From IMG/VR virus record IMGVR_UViG_3300045988_117159: 54,852 bases of DNA. One strand, written 5' to 3'. The translations under genes were made by a program, and so were the position numbers. This stretch comes from a virus. Each line of letters opens with the position of its first letter. The first letter of the stretch is position 1. Shown piece by piece: positions 1,518 to 48,525 of the stretch. Below the pieces are notes generated by a model. It was not told the DNA's origin. It was given only the letters and a program-made list of their open reading frames with translations, and did no database searches.

Positions 1518-1548
1518 TTTTATGTACCTCTTTTCTTATTACATACAT

Positions 1549-1577
1549 AGTATAACATATGTATAACAATATGTAAA
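1549..1577 (-). promoter_or_regulatory. Early promoter cassette copy 2 (-35 TTTACA 1577..1572, -10 TATACT 1554..1549, spacer in the flipped orientation)
   Basis: Same hexamers and 17-nt spacing. The spacer reads TATTGTTATACATATGT on the coding strand. Confidence 0.7.
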
Positions 1578-1617
1578 GTGTTTTGTGTAAAGTTTTTTAT
1601 TTTTTTTTAAATAAAAA

Positions 1618-1637
1618 AAGAAGCATTTAAGCTTCTT
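1618..1637 (-). terminator. Rho-independent terminator type I (AAGAAGC-TTAAAT-GCTTCTT followed by a T run)
   Basis: 7-bp stem followed by TTTTTTTATTT on the coding strand. The stop codon of the 95-aa gene lies inside the stem. Confidence 0.7.
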
Positions 1638-8864: not shown

Positions 8865-9161
8865 TTATTCTTCATAAGGTTCAAATTCTTCAAAATCATC
8901 ATTATCATCATTATTTCTTAAAGCAATTTGATGATAAAGTGCTTCTAATGATGGACTATAGAAACTTTCTACTTGTCTAATGTTTCTTAATTCATCATGA
9001 ATAACTCTACCAAAGAAATAACCGTCACTGCATTCAATAACTTCGAGCTTTACTTGTACATTGCTATTAATATAATAGCTTTCTTCGTCCGTAGGATAAA
9101 CACACCCTACGTTATCACAATATCGCATCGCTTCTTTAATTGTCAAAATTGTTTCTACCAT
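8865..9161 (-). CDS. hypothetical acidic protein (98 aa), first gene behind promoter copy 3
   Basis: ORF directly after the cassette. Acidic tail NDDNDDFEEFEPYEE. Confidence 0.55.
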   Translation of the reverse strand: MVETILTIKEAMRYCDNVGCVYPTDEESYYINSNVQVKLEVIECSDGYFFGRVIHDELRNIRQVESFYSPSLEALYHQIALRNNDDNDDFEEFEPYEE

Positions 9162-9216
9162 TTTTCTTACCCTTTTTGATAACTCTTATTTGTTATCCCT
9201 TTCTTATTACATATAT

Positions 9217-9245
9217 AGTATAACATATATTTTTATGTATAACAA
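9217..9245 (-). promoter_or_regulatory. Early promoter cassette copy 3 (divergent: -35 TTGTTA 9245..9240, -10 TATACT 9222..9217)
   Basis: Same -10 and downstream ATATATG. The core TGTTATAC is displaced 8 bp upstream by an insertion. Confidence 0.55.
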
Positions 9246-9284
9246 TATATTTTGTTAAATTTGTTAAAAAATTTTAAAAATAAA

Positions 9285-9307
9285 AAGGTGTAAAATAATT
9301 ACACCTT
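9285..9307 (-). terminator. Rho-independent terminator (AAGGTGTAA/TTACACCTT)
   Basis: 9-bp stem, 5-nt loop, then TTTTTATTTTT on the coding strand. Abuts the stop of the 113-aa gene. Confidence 0.7.
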
Positions 9308-9648
9308 TAAATAATAGTTGTATTTGAAATTGATTCTAAATTTTTAAGATGATTTTTAAAAACTTGTTTTTCTTCTAATGTGCAAGAATTATAAAGTTCA
9401 CTCAACATCTTTCTAATAGTAGATAATAATGTTTCAAGATTATCAATATTTCTATTGTGCATATAATTAACAAATAAACCTTGGATATCCATAATAGTTT
9501 CATCAACATTACTTTCAGGAACTAAATCATATCCTTGATTTATTTTATTTATTTCAGCAAGTATTAAAAATGCCTCAACATCAAATCCTTTTTTAAGTTG
9601 ATTTTCAGCTAACTCTTTAGCAATGGGAATACTTTCCTCGAATGTCAT
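9307..9648 (-). CDS. hypothetical helical protein (113 aa), accessory island
   Basis: ORF, last gene before terminator 9285-9307. Confidence 0.5.
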   Translation of the reverse strand: MTFEESIPIAKELAENQLKKGFDVEAFLILAEINKINQGYDLVPESNVDETIMDIQGLFVNYMHNRNIDNLETLLSTIRKMLSELYNSCTLEEKQVFKNHLKNLESISNTTII

Positions 9649-9652
9649 ATAA

Positions 9653-9946
9653 TTACATTCCTAGCATTACTTTCACAACTGCTAATTTATCAGTGTATTT
9701 TCTGATGCATTTTTCCCAACAGTCTTTATCTTCTTGCGATAAATATACTGAATCTAATTCATCATATTCTTCCATTCCCATTTCTTTTAAATTTGATGCA
9801 TGCTGTAATTCTTGCATTGCCATATCATGATACATTTTTGACCATTGAGGCTTCATATTTTTATAATATACATATGATTCTGCATAATCTCTAGCACTGC
9901 ATAATTCATCTTTAATAGAATCCATATACATTTCTAGTCTTTTCAT
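9653..9946 (-). CDS. hypothetical helical protein (97 aa from the ATG at 9946)
   Basis: AGGAGG lies 8 nt upstream of ATG 9946. The track start at 9955 is a GTG inside the SD. Confidence 0.5.
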   Translation of the reverse strand: MKRLEMYMDSIKDELCSARDYAESYVYYKNMKPQWSKMYHDMAMQELQHASNLKEMGMEEYDELDSVYLSQEDKDCWEKCIRKYTDKLAVVKVMLGM

Positions 9947-9958
9947 AATGAGCACCTC

Positions 9959-10369
9959 CTAGCAAATTTTAGTTACAACAACATCAAAATCACCTGTAAC
10001 TTCTACACCCGTATTAATGAATTGTAATAATGTTGGAGAATCACAGCATCTTCCTAAATTATTGTCTTTGACTTGAACTAAAGTAGTGATAGGAACATTG
10101 ACTGAAGTTGTAATTGTAGCTCCTGTGATAGTTCTAGTTGCTTGAGGTTGATTGATTCCATTTTTAGTCATACCAATAACCACATCTCCAGCAGTACCTG
10201 CTAAAACAGTAGCATTAAAAACAACTTCATAAATACCGCATTTATTTAATTGAATTGTTGATACACCATTTAATTCGGCAGTACATCCTTTCTTTAAAGT
10301 CACGCTATTAAAAGGAATAATTCCTGTTGTAGCAACTACACTTTGACTTGTTGAATAAGCTTCTAACAT
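9959..10369 (-). CDS. BclA C-terminal / BxpB-like (TNF/C1q-fold-like) beta-rich protein
   Basis: All-beta, T/V/G/N-rich 136-aa sequence. It resembles exosporium BclA-CTD/ExsFA-type domains. Cys-containing C-terminus. Confidence 0.4.
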   Translation of the reverse strand: MLEAYSTSQSVVATTGIIPFNSVTLKKGCTAELNGVSTIQLNKCGIYEVVFNATVLAGTAGDVVIGMTKNGINQPQATRTITGATITTSVNVPITTLVQVKDNNLGRCCDSPTLLQFINTGVEVTGDFDVVVTKIC

Positions 10370-10408
10370 AATAATTTCCCCTCTCTATAATAATTTATTT
10401 TTAATAAA

Positions 10409-10438
10409 AAGTGGGAAGTTGTTCTAGCATTCCCACTT
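10409..10438 (-). terminator. Rho-independent terminator (AAGTGGGAA/TTCCCACTT)
   Basis: 9-bp GC-containing stem, 12-nt loop, then TTTTTATT on the coding strand. Confidence 0.6.
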
Positions 10439-10480
10439 AAACCTATAGGCATACTACAATGCTCATTTAATATTTAATTT

Positions 10481-11083
10481 TTAGATGTTTGAACATCCGC
10501 AACCTGAATTAAACACAGGGCTAAAACCTGCAGTATAAGTGGTTGCATTTGGATATCTAACTACACCACACATCGCTGATTGTAGTTGTAATTGATTAAC
10601 TTGTGCTTGTAATGTTTCAATTTTGTTTTGAGCCAAAGCATCAAGAATCTTTTGAGTTTGAGCTGTTGTGTTTGCATTAATACTAGCAGTATTAATAGCA
10701 CCGTTATAATTAACACCATCAATAGCTCTTTGAGTTGTGCAGCAACATTCAGCTAATTGTGTTTGAGTTGCATTAAAATTTCTTAATGTTTCATAACCTA
10801 AATTACTTAATCCATTTTGAAGTCCTTGATAATTATGTTGAACGTTATCATTTAATCTTCCAACAGAATTTTCTAGGTTATTGAAATTCATAGCATTACA
10901 TAACCCTGCTTCAGTTACTGGTTCTCCATTGAGATTTCTAGTTCCTCCAAAGAAACCTCCTCCACCAATCATCAATAAAATTAGCAATGCGAAAATCCAC
11001 ATTCCGCCATCAGCACCACCAAACATTCCGTTAGTTTTATCAGTCACTGCAGCAATGTCGGCTAAAGATACTCCTGAATCCAT
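10481..11083 (-). CDS. membrane-anchored Gly-rich, Q/N-rich and Cys-rich protein (200 aa)
   Basis: GMFGGADGGMWIFALLILLMIGGGGFFGG transmembrane segment, reminiscent of tiny YjcZ-type sporulation peptides. CCC and CGC clusters. Q/N-rich coiled region. Confidence 0.5.
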   Translation of the reverse strand: MDSGVSLADIAAVTDKTNGMFGGADGGMWIFALLILLMIGGGGFFGGTRNLNGEPVTEAGLCNAMNFNNLENSVGRLNDNVQHNYQGLQNGLSNLGYETLRNFNATQTQLAECCCTTQRAIDGVNYNGAINTASINANTTAQTQKILDALAQNKIETLQAQVNQLQLQSAMCGVVRYPNATTYTAGFSPVFNSGCGCSNI

Positions 11084-11132
11084 AAGTCATTTCTCCTTTC
11101 TTTTGTTAAATTTATATGAAAAAGCTTTAAGC

Positions 11133-11387
11133 TTATTTCATCATTTTTAATATTTCATTAGGGTCAATGTTCATATCTTTACATTTTTGATAAAAAACAT
11201 CTTTTGGGTTTTTACCTTCGCACATTTTCAGAACCTCTTGAACTTGAGGATTAGATTGAGCCATATTCATCAAAGTTTGTTGAGGATTCCTAGCAAAGTT
11301 AAACATATTCATCATATTTTTAACGTTTGACATTATTGGATTTTGATTTAATTGTGTCGAGGTCTTGTTGAACAAACTGCTTGCCAT
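11133..11387 (-). CDS. hypothetical protein (up to 84 aa; start uncertain, alternative ATG at 11333)
   Basis: ORF overlapping the 3' end of the upstream gene in another frame. GGAG lies 11 nt before ATG 11387. Confidence 0.4.
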   Translation of the reverse strand: MASSLFNKTSTQLNQNPIMSNVKNMMNMFNFARNPQQTLMNMAQSNPQVQEVLKMCEGKNPKDVFYQKCKDMNIDPNEILKMMK

Positions 11388-11748
11388 AGTCCATCATCTC
11401 CTTTTTAAAATTTTCAAATTCTTCTCTACTCACAAAATCATTTGAGGGTTGAGATACTTGTTGATTGTCTAAAATTTCAGTAAAAGAAAATTTTCTAATA
11501 TTTCCAAAGCCTGCTCCATCAGTTTGCTTTATATACATAATGTCACTATTACCGTCAAACAAAGCAACAGTACTATTTGGAGCCATTTGATAAGTTTGAG
11601 CACCTTGTAAACCATTTACTCTTATTAATTCTTGAGGTACTAAATTATTTGGAGTACTCATATTATTTAAGTTATTTAAGTTTTGATTATTATAGGATTG
11701 CATGTTATAAGGGTACTGCATACCCATTGAGTAGGGATTTTGATACAT
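11320..11748 (-). CDS. hypothetical protein with a Q/N/Y-rich N-terminus (142 aa)
   Basis: Strong SD AAAGGAGG. Prion-like MYQNPYSMGMQYPYNMQSYNNQNLNNLNN followed by a globular beta-like domain. Confidence 0.55.
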   Translation of the reverse strand: MYQNPYSMGMQYPYNMQSYNNQNLNNLNNMSTPNNLVPQELIRVNGLQGAQTYQMAPNSTVALFDGNSDIMYIKQTDGAGFGNIRKFSFTEILDNQQVSQPSNDFVSREEFENFKKEMMDYGKQFVQQDLDTIKSKSNNVKR

Positions 11749-11767
11749 AATGTATAACCTCCTTTGT

Positions 11768-11788
11768 TTTTACAATAAAATTGTAAAA
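11768..11788. promoter_or_regulatory. Perfect 9-bp inverted repeat TTTTACAAT-AAA-ATTGTAAAA overlapping a candidate promoter (-35 TTGTGA 11808..11803, -10 TACAAT 11785..11780)
   Basis: Palindrome read directly. The hexamers are 17 nt apart on the coding strand, between the terminator and the SD of the 142-aa gene. Confidence 0.4.
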
Positions 11789-11793
11789 TAAAA

Positions 11794-11825
11794 AGTACAC
11801 TATCACAATGTAATGATAGTGTACT
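11794..11825 (-). terminator. Strong rho-independent terminator (12-bp stem AGTACACTATCA/TGATAGTGTACT)
   Basis: 12-bp perfect stem, 8-nt loop, then TTTTTATTTT on the coding strand. Lies after the 66-aa HTH gene. Confidence 0.75.
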
Positions 11826-11837
11826 AAAAGTGTACAA

Positions 11838-12038
11838 TTATAGAATTTTTAAAATTTTCTTATTAACTTTTTGACTTAATTTTCTTGCATAATCACTAGA
11901 TATATCTAGTTCTTCAGCTATTTGTTCTAATGGGATACCTCTTGCTATCATTTCAAATAAATCTTTTTCATAATTTACAAAATTGCATTTATTTCTAAAT
12001 AGGTCTAGTTCGGGTTCAGTAAAGTCAGAAATAATCAT
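11838..12038 (-). CDS. small sigma-70 region 4 / LuxR-type HTH protein (66 aa)
   Basis: GIPLEQIAEELDISSDYARKLSQKVNKKI matches the region-4.2-type HTH pattern. Last gene of the late and lysis transcription unit. Confidence 0.5.
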   Translation of the reverse strand: MIISDFTEPELDLFRNKCNFVNYEKDLFEMIARGIPLEQIAEELDISSDYARKLSQKVNKKILKIL

Positions 12039-12098
12039 CTACGCTTACCTTTTCTTCTTCTACTTCTAGGTACATTTCTTCTAATAGTTTTAGTTACT

Positions 12099-12338
12099 CT
12101 AATTCGTGCCATTATTAATAGTTCCATTTCCATCTACATAATTAGCATCACTATTATCATTTGTTTCAATTTGCGTAGTTGTAGTTTCTTCAGTTGGAAG
12201 ATTCCAAAAATACAACCAAGCAATATTTGTAGCAAAGAATAATAGTAACATTGTAATAAATGCAATAAACCATCTTTTAGATTGATCTTTGATTTCTTTT
12301 AGACAATCAACAGCTAGAGTATCATGTTTTTCTTCCAT
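12099..12338 (-). CDS. single-pass membrane protein downstream of the endolysin
   Basis: Transmembrane segment WFIAFITMLLLFFATNIAWLYFW and a T/N-rich tail. Confidence 0.5.
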   Translation of the reverse strand: MEEKHDTLAVDCLKEIKDQSKRWFIAFITMLLLFFATNIAWLYFWNLPTEETTTTQIETNDNSDANYVDGNGTINNGTN

Positions 12339-12342
12339 AGCA

Positions 12343-13221
12343 TTATACTCCCATTAACGCCATGATGGTATTTTTACCTGCGATACCATCAGCAGTTAAG
12401 CCTTTTGATTTTTGGAATGCTTTAACGGCAGCTTCAGTATTGTTTCCAAATTTAGCATCAGTACCTTGAGGGTTGAATCCATAACAATATAAAGCAACTT
12501 GAACTGCTCTAACCATTTCTTGATACTCACCATTTCTAACATAGTGACGACCTAAAGCATTGATGGTTTTAGACCCACATTTTCCATCAACGGCTAACCA
12601 AGCATTATAATCATGGTTCATAGCAATTTGGAAACATCTAATAATATTAGCTTTTGTTTTAGGTCCATAGATTCCATCAGTATCAATTTTAACTCCTGTA
12701 TAATTGATAGTATGTTGTTGGCCTAAAGCAATTAAATCATTTCCTTTGGAAGTTGATTGTGGTATTGATGGTTTTGAAGTTGAAGTAGTTGAGTGTTCTT
12801 CGTATCTAAAATGATAATCCCATCCACCTTTATACGTATAGAATGAACGTGTACAAATTTCTTTTCCTGTTTGGTCACCAGTTTTACCTCCGGTAGTTTT
12901 TCCTTTTTCATTAATTGATGCATGTACAATGTTTTTAGCATCAATGCACATAACCACATGATGTCCTTCTTTTAAGAAAATATCTCCACGTTTTCTAGGT
13001 GAATCAATAGGAATAGCTTTAAAACCATTTTTTAATAATTGTTCTCTTAAATTTCTAGTAGTAGAACCACTATTTACATTAAATCCAGCTTTATGCAAAG
13101 CAGTACCAACTAATGATGAACAATCATAATTAGGACCATTTCTATGTGCTTGGTCATAACCATGTGAATTATCTCTAGCGATTGCTTCCATAAATGATAC
13201 TGCAGTTTCAATTTTTGACAT
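12343..13221 (-). CDS. endolysin: NlpC/P60-type cysteine peptidase + 2 PG_binding_1-like repeats
   Basis: YDCSSLVG catalytic Cys context, GDIFLKEGHHVVM His. C-terminal DGIYGPKTKANI and DAKFGNNTEAAVKAFQKSKGLTADGIAG repeats. Confidence 0.85.
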   Translation of the reverse strand: MSKIETAVSFMEAIARDNSHGYDQAHRNGPNYDCSSLVGTALHKAGFNVNSGSTTRNLREQLLKNGFKAIPIDSPRKRGDIFLKEGHHVVMCIDAKNIVHASINEKGKTTGGKTGDQTGKEICTRSFYTYKGGWDYHFRYEEHSTTSTSKPSIPQSTSKGNDLIALGQQHTINYTGVKIDTDGIYGPKTKANIIRCFQIAMNHDYNAWLAVDGKCGSKTINALGRHYVRNGEYQEMVRAVQVALYCYGFNPQGTDAKFGNNTEAAVKAFQKSKGLTADGIAGKNTIMALMGV

Positions 13222-13496
13222 TATTCATTTCCTCCATATTTTCCTGATAATAATTTAATCCAATTTTTAACTAATTCATAGCATCCTGTAGCACCTAATC
13301 CAATATAAGCACCAATTACAGCTTTTTCAAATGTTCCATATAAAATAAAATATGAAACTCCACCAACAAATGCTAAAATAGTTGGAATAAGCTTATTATT
13401 AATCACTGCATCATTAGTCCATGTTTTAACAATATATCCAATTAAAACACAACCTAATAATACTGCTGGATTAATAGTTTCTAATAAAAAATCCAT
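13221..13496 (-). CDS. holin
   Basis: 91 aa with 2-3 hydrophobic helices and a charged C-terminus. Immediately upstream of the endolysin, with stop/start overlap. Confidence 0.7.
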   Translation of the reverse strand: MDFLLETINPAVLLGCVLIGYIVKTWTNDAVINNKLIPTILAFVGGVSYFILYGTFEKAVIGAYIGLGATGCYELVKNWIKLLSGKYGGNE

Positions 13497-14354: not shown

Positions 14355-14385
14355 AAAGTATAGTCTTTATTTTTGACTATACTTT
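14355..14385 (-). terminator. Hairpin (11-bp stem AAAGTATAGTC/GACTATACTTT) inside the late operon
   Basis: Perfect 11-bp stem, 9-nt loop, then TTTTAAATT. Overlaps the stop of the 89-aa gene. Confidence 0.45.
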
Positions 14386-14636
14386 ATTCTCTCCACCTCT
14401 TCCTTAACTTCAGAAAGATTATCTTCAACTTCATCTATACGTTCATGAATTCTTCTATGACTATCTTTATTTGAAACAGTAAATTTATCAATATTGTTTT
14501 CAATAGCAGTAAGTCTAGTCATCAATTTTGTAATTGTGGAATTCAATTTAATTATAGGATTTCCAACTGCCAAGAATAAACCTACTAAAGTTGCAATAGA
14601 TATAACTACAATCCAAGAAATTTCATATTCTAACAT
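14367..14636 (-). CDS. membrane-anchored coiled-coil protein (89 aa)
   Basis: N-terminal transmembrane segment ISWIVVISIATLVGLFLAV followed by heptad-like repeats. Confidence 0.5.
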   Translation of the reverse strand: MLEYEISWIVVISIATLVGLFLAVGNPIIKLNSTITKLMTRLTAIENNIDKFTVSNKDSHRRIHERIDEVEDNLSEVKEEVERIKYSQK

Positions 14637-36444: not shown

Positions 36445-36726
36445 TTATTTCAATGTTATAACTTTATAATCACCATTTACTTTTTTATCTTGGTCACATA
36501 AAATATAACCTACTTCACAATTAAATATTTCACATAAGCTATACAATGTTTCAGCATCAGGAAGTTTTTTACCATTTTCAATATCACTTAAAGTATTTCT
36601 ACCAATGTGTAATTTTTCAATTAAATCATATTGTGTCATCCTCATTTCTTTTCTATTTTCTTTAATTCTTTTTCCAATTTCTACCATTTTTAATTTATAT
36701 TTCATTTTAAATTTCTCCTTTATCAT
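36445..36726 (-). CDS. XRE-family HTH protein (candidate antitoxin/regulator)
   Basis: IGKRIKENRKEMRMTQYDLIEKLHIGRNTLSDIENGKKLP is a classic Cro/C1-type HTH. ATGA overlap with the MazF-like gene. Confidence 0.8.
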   Translation of the reverse strand: MIKEKFKMKYKLKMVEIGKRIKENRKEMRMTQYDLIEKLHIGRNTLSDIENGKKLPDAETLYSLCEIFNCEVGYILCDQDKKVNGDYKVITLK

Positions 36727-37070
36727 AAATTAAATTGAATTCTCATACTTTGTTTTACTTTATTCACGTTATATTCATTTAAAGATAAAACTTTTTTAAT
36801 TAAAAATTCTTTTGATATCGTGACTGTTTGTTCCGATAATACATAATTATCAATTCCAAAAATTCTAATTTTAGTATGTTGAGGTAAATGGTCTTTTTTA
36901 GTTGTCAATGGAATAACTCCTATTAAATCACAATATTCATTATTCTTATCATTTGATACAACTACTGCCATTCTTCTTCCCTTTTGATAATGTTTATTTT
37001 TGGCTATTGGAAAAACTCTATTAAAATCAATCCAAAACACATCATCATATTTTATTTCATTTGATACCAT
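36723..37070 (-). CDS. mazF: MazF/PemK-family endoribonuclease-like toxin
   Basis: Colinear with EndoA/MazF: DVFWIDF.., GRRMAVVVSND, IGVIPLTTK, LPQHTKI, VLSEQTVTISKEFL. Confidence 0.75.
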   Translation of the reverse strand: MVSNEIKYDDVFWIDFNRVFPIAKNKHYQKGRRMAVVVSNDKNNEYCDLIGVIPLTTKKDHLPQHTKIRIFGIDNYVLSEQTVTISKEFLIKKVLSLNEYNVNKVKQSMRIQFNL

Positions 37071-38261: not shown

Positions 38262-38312
38262 TTTATGTACCTCTTCTTTCTTTATTTATGTTACTTCCTT
38301 AACTTCATATAT

Positions 38313-38341
38313 AGTATAACATATTGTTATACATATGTAAA
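38313..38341 (-). promoter_or_regulatory. Early promoter cassette copy 4 (-35 TTTACA 38341..38336, -10 TATACT 38318..38313)
   Basis: Spacer identical to copy 1. Confidence 0.7.
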
Positions 38342-38378
38342 GTGTTTTGGGTAAAGTTTTTTATTTTTTTAAATAAAA

Positions 38379-38398
38379 AGCTAGAAATTATTCTAGCT
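38379..38398 (-). terminator. Rho-independent terminator type II (AGCTAGAA-TAAT-TTCTAGCT followed by a T run)
   Basis: 8-bp stem containing the TAG stop of the delta-like gene. Same hairpin as at 43816. Confidence 0.7.
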
Positions 38399-43701: not shown

Positions 43702-43747
43702 TTTATGTACCTCTCTTTTTTATGTATCTCTTTCTTACTTCATATAT

Positions 43748-43776
43748 AGTATAACATATGTATAACAATATGTAAA
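43748..43776 (-). promoter_or_regulatory. Early promoter cassette copy 5 (-35 TTTACA 43776..43771, -10 TATACT 43753..43748, flipped spacer as in copy 2)
   Basis: Same hexamers. The spacer is TATTGTTATACATATGT. Confidence 0.7.
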
Positions 43777-43815
43777 TAGTTTTGGGTAAAGTTTTTTTAT
43801 TTTTTTTTAAATAAA

Positions 43816-43839
43816 AAAGCTAGAAATTATTCTAGCTTT
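43816..43839 (-). terminator. Rho-independent terminator type II (same hairpin as 38379..38398)
   Basis: AGCTAGAA-TAAT-TTCTAGCT plus A/T extension, containing the TAG stop of recA. Confidence 0.7.
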
Positions 43840-45884: not shown

Positions 45885-46324
45885 TTCATATGTCTCCTTG
45901 CATATTCAGCAATTAATAAAGCTTCAGCCATTCCATCATGTTGTTTTCTACTTCTTTCAGTGGGTAATAGATTAACTGATGGGAATAATCTAATGGCACA
46001 TTCAATAGAAGTGTTCTTATCATTTGTTACCCCAAATTCTCTTTTCCATTTTTGAGGTGATACCAATTCATATTGAATAAATGATGCTGATAAAGCACCT
46101 TGGATAAATCCAAAGTTCTTTCCAAAGTTAAACATACTAGTTACACCTTGACCTGGCATAGCATGTACATTTTCAACCATACATTTTACTTTTTGATTAT
46201 TGACATTAAAATCATCTAAAAGTTGAATCAACTTCACATTATCATATTTATAAGTGTACGCTTTATCATACTCAATGACTGCAATACCCCCATTTTTTCC
46301 TGGGTCAATTCCTATATAAATCAT
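45881..46324 (-). CDS. ruvC: RuvC-like Holliday junction resolvase (147 aa from MIYIGIDPG)
   Basis: IGIDPG, VENVH, QHDGMAEALLIA catalytic-residue contexts. The track start at 46405 overlaps the upstream gene and is unlikely. Confidence 0.75.
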   Translation of the reverse strand: MIYIGIDPGKNGGIAVIEYDKAYTYKYDNVKLIQLLDDFNVNNQKVKCMVENVHAMPGQGVTSMFNFGKNFGFIQGALSASFIQYELVSPQKWKREFGVTNDKNTSIECAIRLFPSVNLLPTERSRKQHDGMAEALLIAEYARRHMK

Positions 46325-46328
46325 ATAT

Positions 46329-48389: not shown

Positions 48390-48438
48390 CTTTATGTATC
48401 TCTTTCTTTTTTATGTATCTCTTTCTTACTACATATAT

Positions 48439-48467
48439 AGTATAACATATTGTTATACATAATACAA
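48439..48467 (-). promoter_or_regulatory. Early promoter cassette copy 6 (-35 TTGTAT 48467..48462, -10 TATACT 48444..48439)
   Basis: Spacer identical to copies 1 and 4, with a degenerate -35. Confidence 0.6.
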
Positions 48468-48505
48468 GTGTTTTGGGTAAAGTTTTTTATTTTTTTTAAA
48501 TAAAA

Positions 48506-48525
48506 AAGAAGCTATTAAGCTTCTT
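48506..48525 (-). terminator. Rho-independent terminator type I (same stem as 1618..1637)
   Basis: AAGAAGC-TTAATA-GCTTCTT followed by a T run. It contains the ..EEA-stop of the clamp gene. Confidence 0.7.

Follow-up and report, generated by a model that had tools for sequence, protein, structure and literature searches.

A conserved, mobile six-gene cassette of gut phages and its possible action at the host envelope

In the 54,852-nucleotide virus sequence IMGVR_UViG_3300045988_117159 (IMG/VR; this whole stretch of DNA is referred to as the window), a run of small minus-strand genes lies between the lysis genes and an early promoter. The question raised by this locus is whether these genes constitute a functional unit and, if so, what that unit would contribute to the phage. 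A preliminary description based on the sequence alone had proposed a seven-gene, moron-like island with private regulatory signals, no obvious housekeeping role and a spore-surface-like composition. The best overall explanation in our analysis, to which we assign a probability of about 0.45, is a mobile cassette whose products would form a membrane-anchored assembly acting on the envelope.

Membership, order and spread of the cassette

All seven proposed ORFs are present on the minus strand of the window at the positions given for them, each has conserved homologues, and by this sequence comparison none is a chance ORF. Iterated HMM searches in 84 loci fetched via p200 recovered p200 in every locus, QN142 in 81, p84 in 80, p136 in 72, HTH66 in 71 (in synteny), p100 in 61 and p113 in 51. 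Six of these genes form the conserved unit (9653-12038, minus strand), in the order HTH66, QN142, p84, p200, p136, p100. The seventh, p113, is confined to the window's own clade and was rejected as a member, which reduces the originally described island by one gene. Three terminator hairpins split the region, and its features are listed below in the direction of transcription.

12099-12338, minus strand: TM79, a 79-aa single-pass membrane protein encoded between the endolysin gene and the cassette (flank gene)
11838-12038, minus strand: HTH66, a stand-alone 66-aa tetrahelical HTH protein of the GerE/LuxR/sigma-70-region-4 type; first cassette gene
11794-11825, minus strand: T1, an intrinsic terminator (13-bp stem and T-run) in the gap between the HTH gene and QN142
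11780-11808, minus strand: putative sigma-A-type promoter (TTGTGA, 17 nt, TACAAT) that would serve QN142-p84-p200 and overlaps the 3' arm of T1
11768-11788, minus strand: perfect 9-bp palindrome, TTTTACAAT-TTT-ATTGTAAAA, covering the candidate -10 element
11320-11748, minus strand: QN142, with a Q/N/Y/P-rich disordered N-terminus (1-52), a three-stranded beta unit (60-88) and a helix (108-121)
11133-11387, minus strand: p84, a small Met-rich (13%) and Q/N-rich (25%) protein
10481-11083, minus strand: p200, the 200-aa signature protein of the cassette
10404-10438, minus strand: T2, a terminator-like hairpin after p200 (-11.3 kcal/mol, z -2.1), the weakest of the three
9959-10369, minus strand: p136, a stand-alone BclA-C/TNF-like domain protein with five Cys
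9653-9946, minus strand: p100, a 97-aa half-ferritin; last gene of the conserved cassette
9307-9648, minus strand: p113, a helical protein found only in close relatives of the window (flank gene)
9284-9308, minus strand: T3, a terminator after p113 that closes the late transcription unit (-11.4 kcal/mol, z -5.0)
9217-9245, minus strand: early promoter (TTGTTA, 17 nt, TATACT, with an upstream TG)

One cassette gene order is kept in approximately 125 fetched loci, in phages that range from 28 to 59% GC and include ones that have nothing else in common with the window. At locus L010 (47% GC), p200 is 75% identical to that of the window and no other gene is common to the two within 10 kb on either side. 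QN142, p84 and p200 occur together in at least 80 of the 84 loci, and the 68-nt overlap of the start of p84 with the end of QN142 is also present in relatives. HTH66, p136 and p100 are each individually missing from some loci; in others the p136 slot holds a non-homologous Cys-rich protein of 125 aa, or the p100 slot a protein of ~189 aa. Replacement in the same slot by a protein of like size and composition argues for a conserved role of that slot.

The usual site of the cassette is directly past the lysis genes, at the lysis end of the late operon, as in the window and in bajarodcaudo virus 5. One SPP1-like clade carries it inside the head-gene block, between minor capsid protein 2 and the scaffold/capsid genes, C. 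perfringens phages carry it in the early region, and a temperate phage has it between the lysis genes and the integrase. Among 28 diverse loci, about half have a match to a cell-wall hydrolase or cell-wall-binding family in the closest large gene upstream, and the catalytic families of these genes are mutually unrelated. The flanking TM79 (hydrophobic peak at residues 24-42; no Pfam match) often accompanies the cassette, being present in 56/84 loci, and in Dulem virus 35 it lies directly upstream of the HTH gene with the cassette in the head module. When loci were instead sampled through the SNF2 helicase, and therefore independently of the cassette, p200 was present in 34/39 and the remainder included deletion variants; a few close relatives lack the cassette wholly or in part, and as metagenome assemblies these may be defective genomes.

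Together, the several genomic positions and the natural deletion variants point to a mobile, dispensable cassette, and the description of the locus as conserved, mobile and dispensable is very probably correct. The cassette is a moron-like accessory module that moves as a unit between many unrelated gut Firmicutes phages. In this respect the preliminary description is upheld by the fixed order in otherwise unrelated phages, the varied positions, the losses and the hairpins at the T1 place. Its claim that no housekeeping role is evident also stands, since homology of the cassette to housekeeping phage proteins was looked for and not found. The six proteins contain no detectable catalytic domain apart from the ferritin-like one and no recognisable toxin, exclusion or virulence family.

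Predicted properties of the proteins and regulatory signals

The most conserved protein of the neighbourhood is p200, which is 80-84% identical to relatives in which DnaB is at ~72% and SNF2 at ~68%, and which belongs to a family of at least 8000 clusters at 90% identity. It consists of an acidic N-terminal tail, a hydrophobic Gly-flanked segment (about residues 28-47) and a predicted long helix, with an invariant CCC motif at 113-115 and a Cys-rich C-terminal tail that ends in GCGC. The hydrophobic segment is kept in nearly all of 272 p200 relatives (mean peak hydropathy 2.4). Both of its flanks are acidic and poor in K/R, a feature atypical of stable membrane anchors, and several topologies of p200 seem possible. 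The likeness to YjcZ peptides noted earlier is confined to composition, and neither the window protein nor 43 relatives gave a Pfam match. Searches of p200 against Pfam and PDB returned no match, and structure prediction of two core proteins gave no usable fold. PHROG 16490 (p200, 6.4e-18) and PHROG 21718 (QN142, 3.1e-13) are both labelled "unknown function" and do not record the cassette linkage.

The Q/N/Y-rich N-terminus described for QN142 is evident in the first 40 residues (N+Q = 40%), and in the AlphaFold2 model confidence is too low to assign structure at residues 1-52 (pLDDT below 50) and reaches 68-83 at residues 51-90. Foldseek with this model found no PDB match below E 0.1; matches in BFVD are mainly uncharacterised gut-virome proteins, and the few named ones carry names that look arbitrary and automatic. 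For the overlapping 84-aa ORF the long form is the genuine one: its N-terminus MASSLF is conserved in relatives, although one gene caller picked a 66-aa form. Its domain matches are weak only (XPC-binding and ubiquilin-like). The QN142, p84 and p200 genes have good ribosome-binding sites.

A resemblance of p136 to the BclA C-terminal domain was correctly recognised: the family profile matches BclA 2z5w over its full length (E 4.4e-6) and F-BclA-CTD 9h38 (1.3e-4), and Pfam BclA_C (PF18573) is found in 11/17 family members, with the window sequence alone reaching 22.4 bits against a cut-off of 38. BclA_C (1WCK, 2Z5W, 9H38) is the TNF/C1q-like trimeric head of the collagen-like exosporium filament, and p136, all-beta in character, has in common with it the motif IPFNSV...G.Y. 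In contrast to BclA, p136 is phage-encoded beside a membrane-protein gene, carries conserved Cys motifs and, at ~135 aa, has no collagen-like stalk or N-terminal extension. Its relatives likewise stand alone: at E up to 0.001 there are 291 representative clusters, and among the best 150 listed almost all are ~125-145 aa and matched end to end, which leaves no room for a collagen stalk.

Of the two downstream proteins earlier called helical, p113 is helical, with no family match in Pfam or PHROG, whereas p100 is better described as a half-ferritin. Pfam Rubrerythrin is detected in 12/15 p100 family members (best E 3.4e-5), and bacterioferritin 9qq4 is matched at E 1e-5 with alignment to helices A and B. 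As in the ferritin-like superfamily (bacterioferritin, rubrerythrin), p100 has the Glu/Tyr of helix A and the ExxH of helix B, and E14, Y21, E46 and H49 are invariant. Unlike ferritins it has only 97 aa and one putative metal-ligand set, the second ExxH of many relatives being lost in the window protein. Half-ferritins of similar size exist, such as the encapsulated ferritins; no solved encapsulated ferritin is among the 60 best p100 matches listed.

The HTH66 family profile matches the SdiA DNA-binding domain (1.8e-8), GerE 1fse (2.8e-8) and RpoE (8.9e-6), with NarL also matched and SdiA and NarL scoring on par with GerE. The single sequence stays under the Pfam cut-offs for both GerE (0.0038) and Sigma70_r4 (0.047), PHROG sigma-factor families match at ~1e-4 through their C-terminal ends, and the HTH of one relative has a precomputed Sigma70_r4 match. 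The earlier reading as a sigma region-4-like HTH is thus acceptable, but the GerE/LuxR tetrahelical fold fits at least as well. A sigma factor was rejected because sigma region 2 is absent. Compared with the GerE/LuxR-FixJ and sigma-70 region 4 families (1FSE; PF00196, PF04545), HTH66 is similar to GerE in its stand-alone size (66 versus 74 aa) and differs in its sub-threshold Pfam scores and in the terminator that separates it from the genes it may control.

This terminator, T1, is a predicted strong one (-18 kcal/mol, z -6.2). The units of the island are bounded by terminators, as proposed; the separate terminator expected after p200 is also found, in the weaker form of T2. About half of the non-redundant relatives have a hairpin (at least 7 bp) in the gap that follows the HTH gene; most of these hairpins precede a T-run, and they differ in sequence. 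The candidate promoter beside T1 has 9/12 consensus matches in a consensus scan, a score that is common in this AT-rich DNA. The palindrome is a possible operator: such a repeat arises in 0.85% of shuffles of the 45-nt tail, and comparable palindromes occur at 0.31 per kb in the window. In the closest relatives its symmetry is broken by single one-arm changes with no compensation in the other arm, which weakens the case for an operator. The early promoter predicted at the island's border is confirmed; it is a divergent version of a conserved promoter block whose four other copies, closely similar, lie in intergenic regions of the window (1518-1626, 38262-38392, 43702-43831 and 48390-48514).

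Possible functions of the cassette

In the favoured explanation the cassette products would form one complex around p200, whose single hydrophobic segment would keep it in or on the cytoplasmic membrane. The CCC motif and C-terminal Cys would cross-link p200 oligomers once conditions become oxidising, perhaps also to the Cys-rich p136 trimer; p84 and QN142 would assist in the cytoplasm as partners or chaperones, and HTH66 would control the cassette's own promoter. Late in infection, around lysis, such a complex could affect the host envelope by setting lysis time, blocking superinfection or re-adsorption, or aiding persistence after lysis. This envelope mechanism is a tentative, low-confidence guess. 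Any stalk or cross-link picture is conjecture, as the AlphaFold2 model of p200 is unreliable (pLDDT 46). Co-transfer of the genes is linkage and no proof of physical interaction, and homology tying any component to envelope, lysis or exclusion was not found. Lysis control in particular leaves the TNF-like trimer, the ferritin-like protein and the transcription factor with no obvious role.

An unlikely alternative is that the cassette products are optional components of the virion. They could form a decoration or fibre on the capsid or tail, with p200 as a coiled-coil stalk and p136 as its TNF-like trimeric head, disulfide-locked after release. They could also be internal or ejection proteins, whose hydrophobic segment would enter the target membrane on infection after being shielded by p84 before packaging. 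TNF/C1q-like trimers are common fibre tips, as in BclA, and decoration proteins may be as dispensable as this cassette. The cassette is always within or beside late genes, and its place in the head block of the SPP1-like clade also fits a virion role. The acidic flanks in p200 are easier to reconcile with on-demand insertion of the segment than with permanent anchoring. Several products are Cys-rich without signal peptides (hydropathy peaks and sequences revealed no strongly hydrophobic signal-peptide-like N-terminal segment in the partners of p200), so disulfide cross-links would be possible only after release. However, the cassette comes with a regulator and terminators of its own and varies in position, a ferritin-like protein and an HTH are unexpected in particles, the gap between lysis genes and integrase in the temperate phage is a classic place for non-structural cargo, and no similarity to known structural phage families was found in Pfam or PHROG.

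The spore theme, in which coat- or exosporium-like proteins would modify the surface of host spores, change sporulation or tether phage material to spores, rests by analogy on the remote homology of p136 to BclA-C, the fold-level likeness of HTH66 to GerE (a regulator of late spore-coat genes) and composition, and we consider it improbable. Ferritin-like and Cys-rich proteins are recurrent components of spore coats, and the culturable carriers, such as Clostridium phages CPD1 and XP41-N3, infect C. perfringens, a spore-former. Gut phages with sporulation-related genes are known (PMC10294663), but the catalogue of phage sporulation genes contains nothing resembling the cassette. The GerE-type fold is generic, p136 has no extension able to hold an exosporium-targeting sequence, and neither YjcZ nor any other sporulation family was matched. 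The window phage looks virulent, with its own replisome (neither sporulation genes nor an integrase were found among its called genes by Pfam annotation), and some carrier bins are assigned to non-spore-forming taxa.

Equally improbable is an anti-defence or host-takeover set of small non-enzymatic proteins that would neutralise immune or signalling components of the host by binding them. The cassette is mobile and dispensable, its small non-enzymatic proteins evolve fast, and known anti-defence genes lie near some loci (a Tad2-like gene at L088). Nevertheless, such genes are usually early and the cassette is at the late end, p200 is conserved far above typical arms-race proteins, and the Foldseek match between QN142 and the anti-CBASS protein Acb4 falls short of significance (E 0.35, TM 0.2-0.35). 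PADLOC gave no match, though its library comprises defence systems and not anti-defence proteins. Finally, chance linkage of unrelated morons, such as a ferritin-like antioxidant gene with assorted small genes, would accommodate the swappable slots and the separate losses of HTH66, p136 and p100, but is very improbable given the single order across phages of such different GC content, the constancy of QN142-p84-p200 with its overlap, and the like-for-like replacements.

Comparison with T4 lysis inhibition and phage morons

For a membrane-anchored assembly acting on the envelope, the lysis-inhibition set of T4 offers an analogy. It comprises holin T, a protein with a single transmembrane segment and a large disulfide-containing C-terminal domain, together with the small partners RI and RIII. 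By analogy only, p200 has the size of holin T, with a short N-tail, one hydrophobic segment and a Cys-bearing C-domain of ~150 aa. A small helical partner of ~84 aa, reminiscent of RI/RIII, is encoded beside it, and the cassette adjoins the lysis genes and is dispensable. The likeness is one of size and layout; the window already has a conventional holin (13221-13496), and the TNF-like, ferritin-like and HTH members have no T4 counterparts. With phage morons and lysogenic-conversion cargo the cassette has in common that it is terminator-bounded, dispensable and mobile, and often lies between the lysis genes and the integrase or early region. It differs from them in being a fixed six-gene set with its own regulator in place of a single gene, and in that the window carrier is apparently virulent.

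Content, conservation and mobility of the cassette

The region downstream of the lysis genes contains a six-gene cassette (HTH66 through p100), which our analysis firmly establishes as a fixed-order, horizontally mobile and dispensable accessory unit with its own regulator and terminators. The features of this region, in order of transcription, are as follows.

12099-12338, minus strand: TM79, a 79-aa protein encoded between the endolysin gene and the cassette
11838-12038, minus strand: HTH66, a small helix-turn-helix (HTH) protein
11794-11825: hairpin T1
11320-11748, minus strand: QN142, a protein with a Q/N/Y-rich N-terminus
11133-11387, minus strand: p84, an 84-aa protein overlapping QN142
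10481-11083, minus strand: p200, with a hydrophobic segment between Gly runs
about 10404-10438: hairpin T2
9959-10369, minus strand: p136, a BclA-C/TNF-like protein
9653-9946, minus strand: p100, a half-ferritin
9307-9648, minus strand: p113, a flanking gene of the window clade only
9284-9308: hairpin T3

All seven open reading frames listed in the preliminary description (the cassette plus p113) are present as described, and each is considered a real gene because homologues keep its relative position in other phages. The overlapping p84 frame is genuine in its long form, with a conserved N-terminal MASSLF and an overlap with QN142 that recurs in relatives.

Homologues of p200 were identified by tblastn in virome records and C. 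perfringens phages, where genes resembling QN142 and p84 immediately precede them. The proposed survey of synteny was carried out with iterated HMMs on 84 loci (71 viral-contig, 5 genome-collection and 8 annotated phage records). In this sample, which was fetched through p200, p200 is recovered in 84 of 84 loci, followed by QN142 (81), p84 (80), p136 (72), HTH66 (71) and p100 (61), and the order and strand of the cassette are identical throughout; the window's own lysin and holin families are found in 31 and 15 loci only. At 90% identity, one search placed 5684 clusters in the p200 family, and a profile search at least 8000. Carriers range from 28% to 59% GC, and in many of them the cassette is all that they have in common with the window over 10 kb to each side; for one locus of 47% GC, this common part is limited to p200 (75% identical) and QN142. 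The same partners accompany p200 across phages of very different base composition.

Within the window clade, conservation is higher for p200 (80-84% identical) and p136 (70-74%) than for DnaB (~72%) or the SNF2 helicase (~68%), and p100, p84 and QN142 diverge faster. In one close relative, IMGVR_UViG_3300045988_110617, the flanking genes are mostly 96-100% identical to those of the window and p200 and p136 only 86% and 93%, a difference that suggests recombinational exchange of alleles inside the cassette. Searched for near-identical DNA, 50,697 phage records contained no match to the region, and p200 had none in plasmids.

The cassette occupies several genomic positions. In the window clade, bajarodcaudo virus 5 and other loci, its place is after the lysis genes. 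Dulem virus 35 and a whole SPP1-like clade have it in the head module, with Phage_min_cap2 on one side and the scaffold and capsid genes on the other; the same head genes occur in the window, uninterrupted at this point. C. perfringens phages carry the cassette in their early region, and in a temperate phage of 59% GC it is flanked by the lysis genes and by an integrase and repressor in divergent orientation. Among 28 non-redundant loci, roughly half have a gene matching a cell-wall hydrolase or cell-wall-binding family as the closest large one upstream, and the catalytic families concerned (NLPC_P60, Amidase_2, Amidase_5, CHAP, Glucosaminidase, Peptidase_C39_2 and Phage_lysozyme2) are mutually unrelated.

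Presence and absence were scored in a sample anchored on the SNF2 helicase, and hence independent of the cassette, which provided 39 loci with enough upstream sequence. p200 is present in 34 of these. One locus (L112) has a deletion from the 3' end of TM79 to the middle of p113 that removes HTH66 through p100, another (L097) lacks p200, p136 and p100, a third (L107) lacks p200, and two (L125 and L129) lack the whole cassette; these variants are metagenome assemblies whose viability is presumed. The moron-like character proposed earlier is borne out by presence and absence among related phages, varied positions and occurrence in unrelated phages; of its own regulatory signals, the terminators are well supported and the promoter is a candidate.

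Folds and families of the encoded proteins

HTH66 is a stand-alone tetrahelical HTH protein. Its family profile matches the DNA-binding domain of SdiA (1.8e-8), GerE (2.8e-8) and NarL (5e-6) among PDB sequences, as well as RpoE, and the single sequence falls below the Pfam GerE/LuxR (PF00196) cut-off (17.3 versus 23.5 bits). Matches to sigma factors are confined to region 4: PHROG sigma-factor families are matched at their C-terminal ends only (positions 110-156 of 167 in PHROG 1190), TIGR02937 at positions 122-164 of 165, and a Sigma70_r4 match is precomputed for one relative. The earlier label of a sigma-region-4-like HTH thus holds for a small HTH with region-4 matches, and requires qualification in that GerE/LuxR folds match too and sigma region 2 is missing. 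A sigma-70 family sigma factor, which combines region 4 with a region 2 that contacts the -10 element and core polymerase, was considered and rejected; because it has 66 residues and lacks region 2, HTH66 is not a sigma factor but a predicted DNA-binding regulator.

For p136, the suggested likeness to BclA was confirmed by comparing the family profile with solved structures, which shows a full-length though remote homology to the TNF/C1q-like C-terminal domain of BclA. Profile positions 20-139 align with residues 23-135 of 2z5w (E 4.4e-6), and there is a further match at 1.3e-4 to 9h38, the corresponding domain of F-BclA, from endospore appendages (PMC12357932). The window protein itself is below the BclA_C (PF18573) cut-off (22.4 versus 38 bits, E 1.2e-4), and 11 of 17 relatives match this family at E<=0.05 (best 2.3e-7). 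In BclA the domain ends a collagen-like stalk with an N-terminal exosporium-targeting region, whereas p136 has 136 aa and no GXY repeats; nearly all of the best 150 of 291 representative relatives are likewise stand-alone proteins of ~125-145 aa.

The two proteins described initially as helical have separated, p100 being a half-ferritin and p113, like TM79, having no assignable family. p100 contains the helix A Glu and helix B ExxH, with E14, Y21, E46 and H49 invariant in 15 relatives, and matches helices A and B of bacterioferritin (1e-5); Pfam Rubrerythrin (PF02915) matches 12 of 15 members, with the window protein at 19.3 against a cut-off of 22.8. In a ferritin-like four-helix bundle of ~140-170 aa, helices C and D supply another Glu and ExxH, but p100 has 97 aa without the complete second set: a second ExxH is found in many relatives, is not invariant, and is lost in the window protein (WEKCI).

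Loci without p136 have a Cys-rich, beta-type protein of ~125 aa in its slot (L001 5526-5903; L002 5701-6120; L003 6699-7109; L065 1915-2286; L012 10336-10725). Most versions have an N-terminal Cys-rich stretch (e.g. MxCxxxCxxC) before the beta-type body, a layout reminiscent of endospore appendage subunits with their Cys-rich N-terminal connectors; homology to p136 or any PDB entry was not detectable. Just downstream of the p136 slot, about ten loci, several without detectable p100, encode a protein of ~189 aa from a family of ~175-335 aa (L030 11154-11723; L001 6484-7011; L004 4382-5086; L002 6125-7132). Its profile has no match to p100 and a weak one to full-length ferritins (best E 0.006); the cassette may therefore always include a ferritin-like protein, in either of two forms.

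Three of the six cassette proteins, QN142, p84 and p200, have no recognisable fold or family, and searches of Pfam, NCBIfam, PHROGs and PADLOC provided no functional name for these, p113 or TM79. The Q/N/Y-rich N-terminus noted for QN142 is a real feature, conserved as a Q/N/Y/P-rich composition with variable sequence. AlphaFold2 gave no confident structure for residues 1-52, followed by a small three-stranded unit and a helix at moderate confidence; Foldseek against the PDB returned nothing below E 0.1, matches in BFVD were mostly uncharacterised gut-virome proteins, and the family profile returned only noise from PDB sequences. p84 is composed of 13% Met and 25% Q/N and weakly matches XPC-binding and ubiquilin-type helical domains.

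p200 begins with an acidic tail of ~27 residues, and its hydrophobic segment between Gly runs is conserved in nearly all of 272 relatives. Both flanks of this segment are acidic and K/R-poor and so give no charge cue to its topology. A near-invariant CCC is followed by D-x-V-x-Y-x2-A-x-NT, and the C-terminus contains Cys. The protein matches PHROG 16490 (function unknown), and the family has no Pfam match and only noise against PDB sequences. The likeness to YjcZ-type peptides drawn earlier was not sustained, as no such Pfam match was found for p200 (E<=0.1) or 43 relatives (E<=0.05), and is compositional only, consisting of a Gly-flanked hydrophobic stretch. The AlphaFold2 model (43-row alignment, pLDDT 46) is unreliable. 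A long coiled coil was also considered and is unsupported beyond the last ~30 residues because a heptad scan of residues 89-169 revealed no clear register.

Genomic setting and regulation

The window, which derives from a human gut metagenome, is a phage genome of ~55 kb with a GC content of 28%, and practically every credible gene is on its minus strand. The head and tail genes are SPP1-like by their Pfam labels (Terminase_3, Phage_min_cap2, SPP1_Dit and Sipho_Gp37), and genes without such a label fill the portal, scaffold and major capsid positions. Replisome genes encode DNA polymerase A, sliding clamp, clamp loader, RecA, DnaB, primase and the SNF2 helicase; no integrase was found among the Pfam labels of called genes anywhere in the window. 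The lysis genes and promoter blocks are located as follows.

13221-13496: holin candidate
12343-13221: endolysin (Amidase_5, ELLD, PG_binding_1)
1518-1626, 38262-38392, 43702-43831 and 48390-48514: four conserved copies of a strong promoter block, with a T-run upstream
9162-9306: diverged copy of the promoter block

The layout of the block is a T-run, AAAAAACTTTAC(A/C)CAAAAC, a -35 of the TTTACA/TTGTAT type and then TGTTATACT (extended -10). The blocks divide the early genes into several units, and a terminator-like T-rich stretch precedes each copy. With lysis genes on one side and the terminator and promoter opening an early unit on the other, the cassette region forms the 3' end of a late unit.

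Two further observations concern the early region and a gap in open reading frame selection. A PemK-family toxin gene (36723-37070, minus strand) adjoins an HTH_3 (Xre-type) gene (36445-36726, minus strand), and the two look like a toxin-antitoxin pair in an apparently virulent phage. The gap, of 444 nt (45885-46328), seems by eye to encode a RuvC-like Holliday-junction resolvase (IGIDPGKNGG...).

A recurrent feature immediately before the cassette or lysis genes is a small protein whose N-terminal transmembrane segment is followed by a coiled coil (window 14367-14636; L020 8076-8366; L086 8645-8950); in the head-module clade, one such protein and a 130-aa protein precede the cassette. On account of this recurrence, part of a lysis block may move with the cassette.

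The island was correctly described as terminator-bounded, in that three hairpins with T-runs divide the region: T1 after HTH66 (-18 kcal/mol, z -6.2), T2 after p200 (-11.3, z -2.1) and T3 after p113 (-11.4, z -5.0). An Rfam scan of 9000-12500 returned nothing credible. About half of the non-redundant relatives have a hairpin of at least 7 bp between HTH66 and QN142, most with a following T-run, and the stems differ in sequence from locus to locus, a pattern consistent with terminator conservation. In the window, a candidate promoter (TTGTGA, 17 nt, TACAAT; 9/12 consensus match) overlaps T1, and a perfect 9-bp palindrome (11768-11788; chance ~1%) lies between T1 and the QN142 ribosome-binding site, over the candidate -10. 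This palindrome may be an HTH66 operator, and is held to candidate status because close relatives break its symmetry. The HTH66-QN142 spacing is 89 nt in the window versus 210-300 nt in most close relatives, and in 28 loci this spacer contains an extra conserved small open reading frame, mostly of 41-54 aa (L009 9231-9383; L021 9258-9398), that is absent from the window.

Functional interpretation

We favour a function in which p200 would be the centre of a membrane-associated assembly acting at the envelope late in infection. The grounds are the association of the cassette with the lysis end of late operons, the conserved hydrophobic segment of p200, the most constrained of the six proteins, the lack of a signal-peptide-like hydrophobic N-terminus in the partners of p200, and the finding of no enzymatic domain besides the ferritin-like one. 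A spanin-like reading was rejected, given that C. perfringens, which hosts carrier phages, is Gram-positive and that the wall-binding domains of the window endolysin are of Gram-positive type.

The alternative that best survives is an accessory role in the virion, which we keep alive on account of the acidic flanks of the p200 hydrophobic segment, the location of the cassette in the head module in one clade and its Cys-rich composition. A role at the spore surface, as suggested in the preliminary description, finds thematic echoes in the GerE-type HTH, the ferritin-like p100 and the BclA-C domain of p136, but it has no specific support, and the generic nature of these folds weighs against it. 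We regard an anti-defence role, or the mere linkage of genes that are unrelated, as less likely. Compared with the PADLOC component models of known anti-phage defence systems, 10 proteins had no match at E<=0.1.

Literature searches on phage BclA-like or TNF-like modules and on the C. perfringens carrier phages turned up no account of this cassette; its proteins are on record only as hypothetical and its component families in PHROGs as of unknown function. We file it as phage accessory or moron cargo that is unusually large, widespread and conserved, and as a coherent block it ranks among the larger ones in the gut-virome 'dark matter'. As it is dispensable and its carriers include culturable C. 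perfringens phages such as CPD1, XP41-N3 and vB_CpeS-17DYC, its function is directly testable by deletion. Whether in lysis timing, exclusion, virion protection or spore interaction, its role likely matters for the ecology of gut Clostridia phages, and solving it would name several large families of unknown function.

Beyond the favoured envelope assembly, we consider it improbable, though worth stating, that the cassette is a phage-borne, spore-coat-like self-assembly kit, released at lysis to coat virions or cell remnants or to re-dress host spores. A GerE-type regulator would control a membrane-seeded, Cys-cross-linked p200 scaffold, to which p136 would contribute a TNF-like lectin trimer, QN142 a sticky Q/N-rich protein and p100 a ferritin-like antioxidant, and the components released at lysis would form a protective or adhesive coat. 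Occlusion and coat strategies are, to our knowledge, undescribed for tailed phages, and such a kit, if true, would be their bacterial-virus counterpart.
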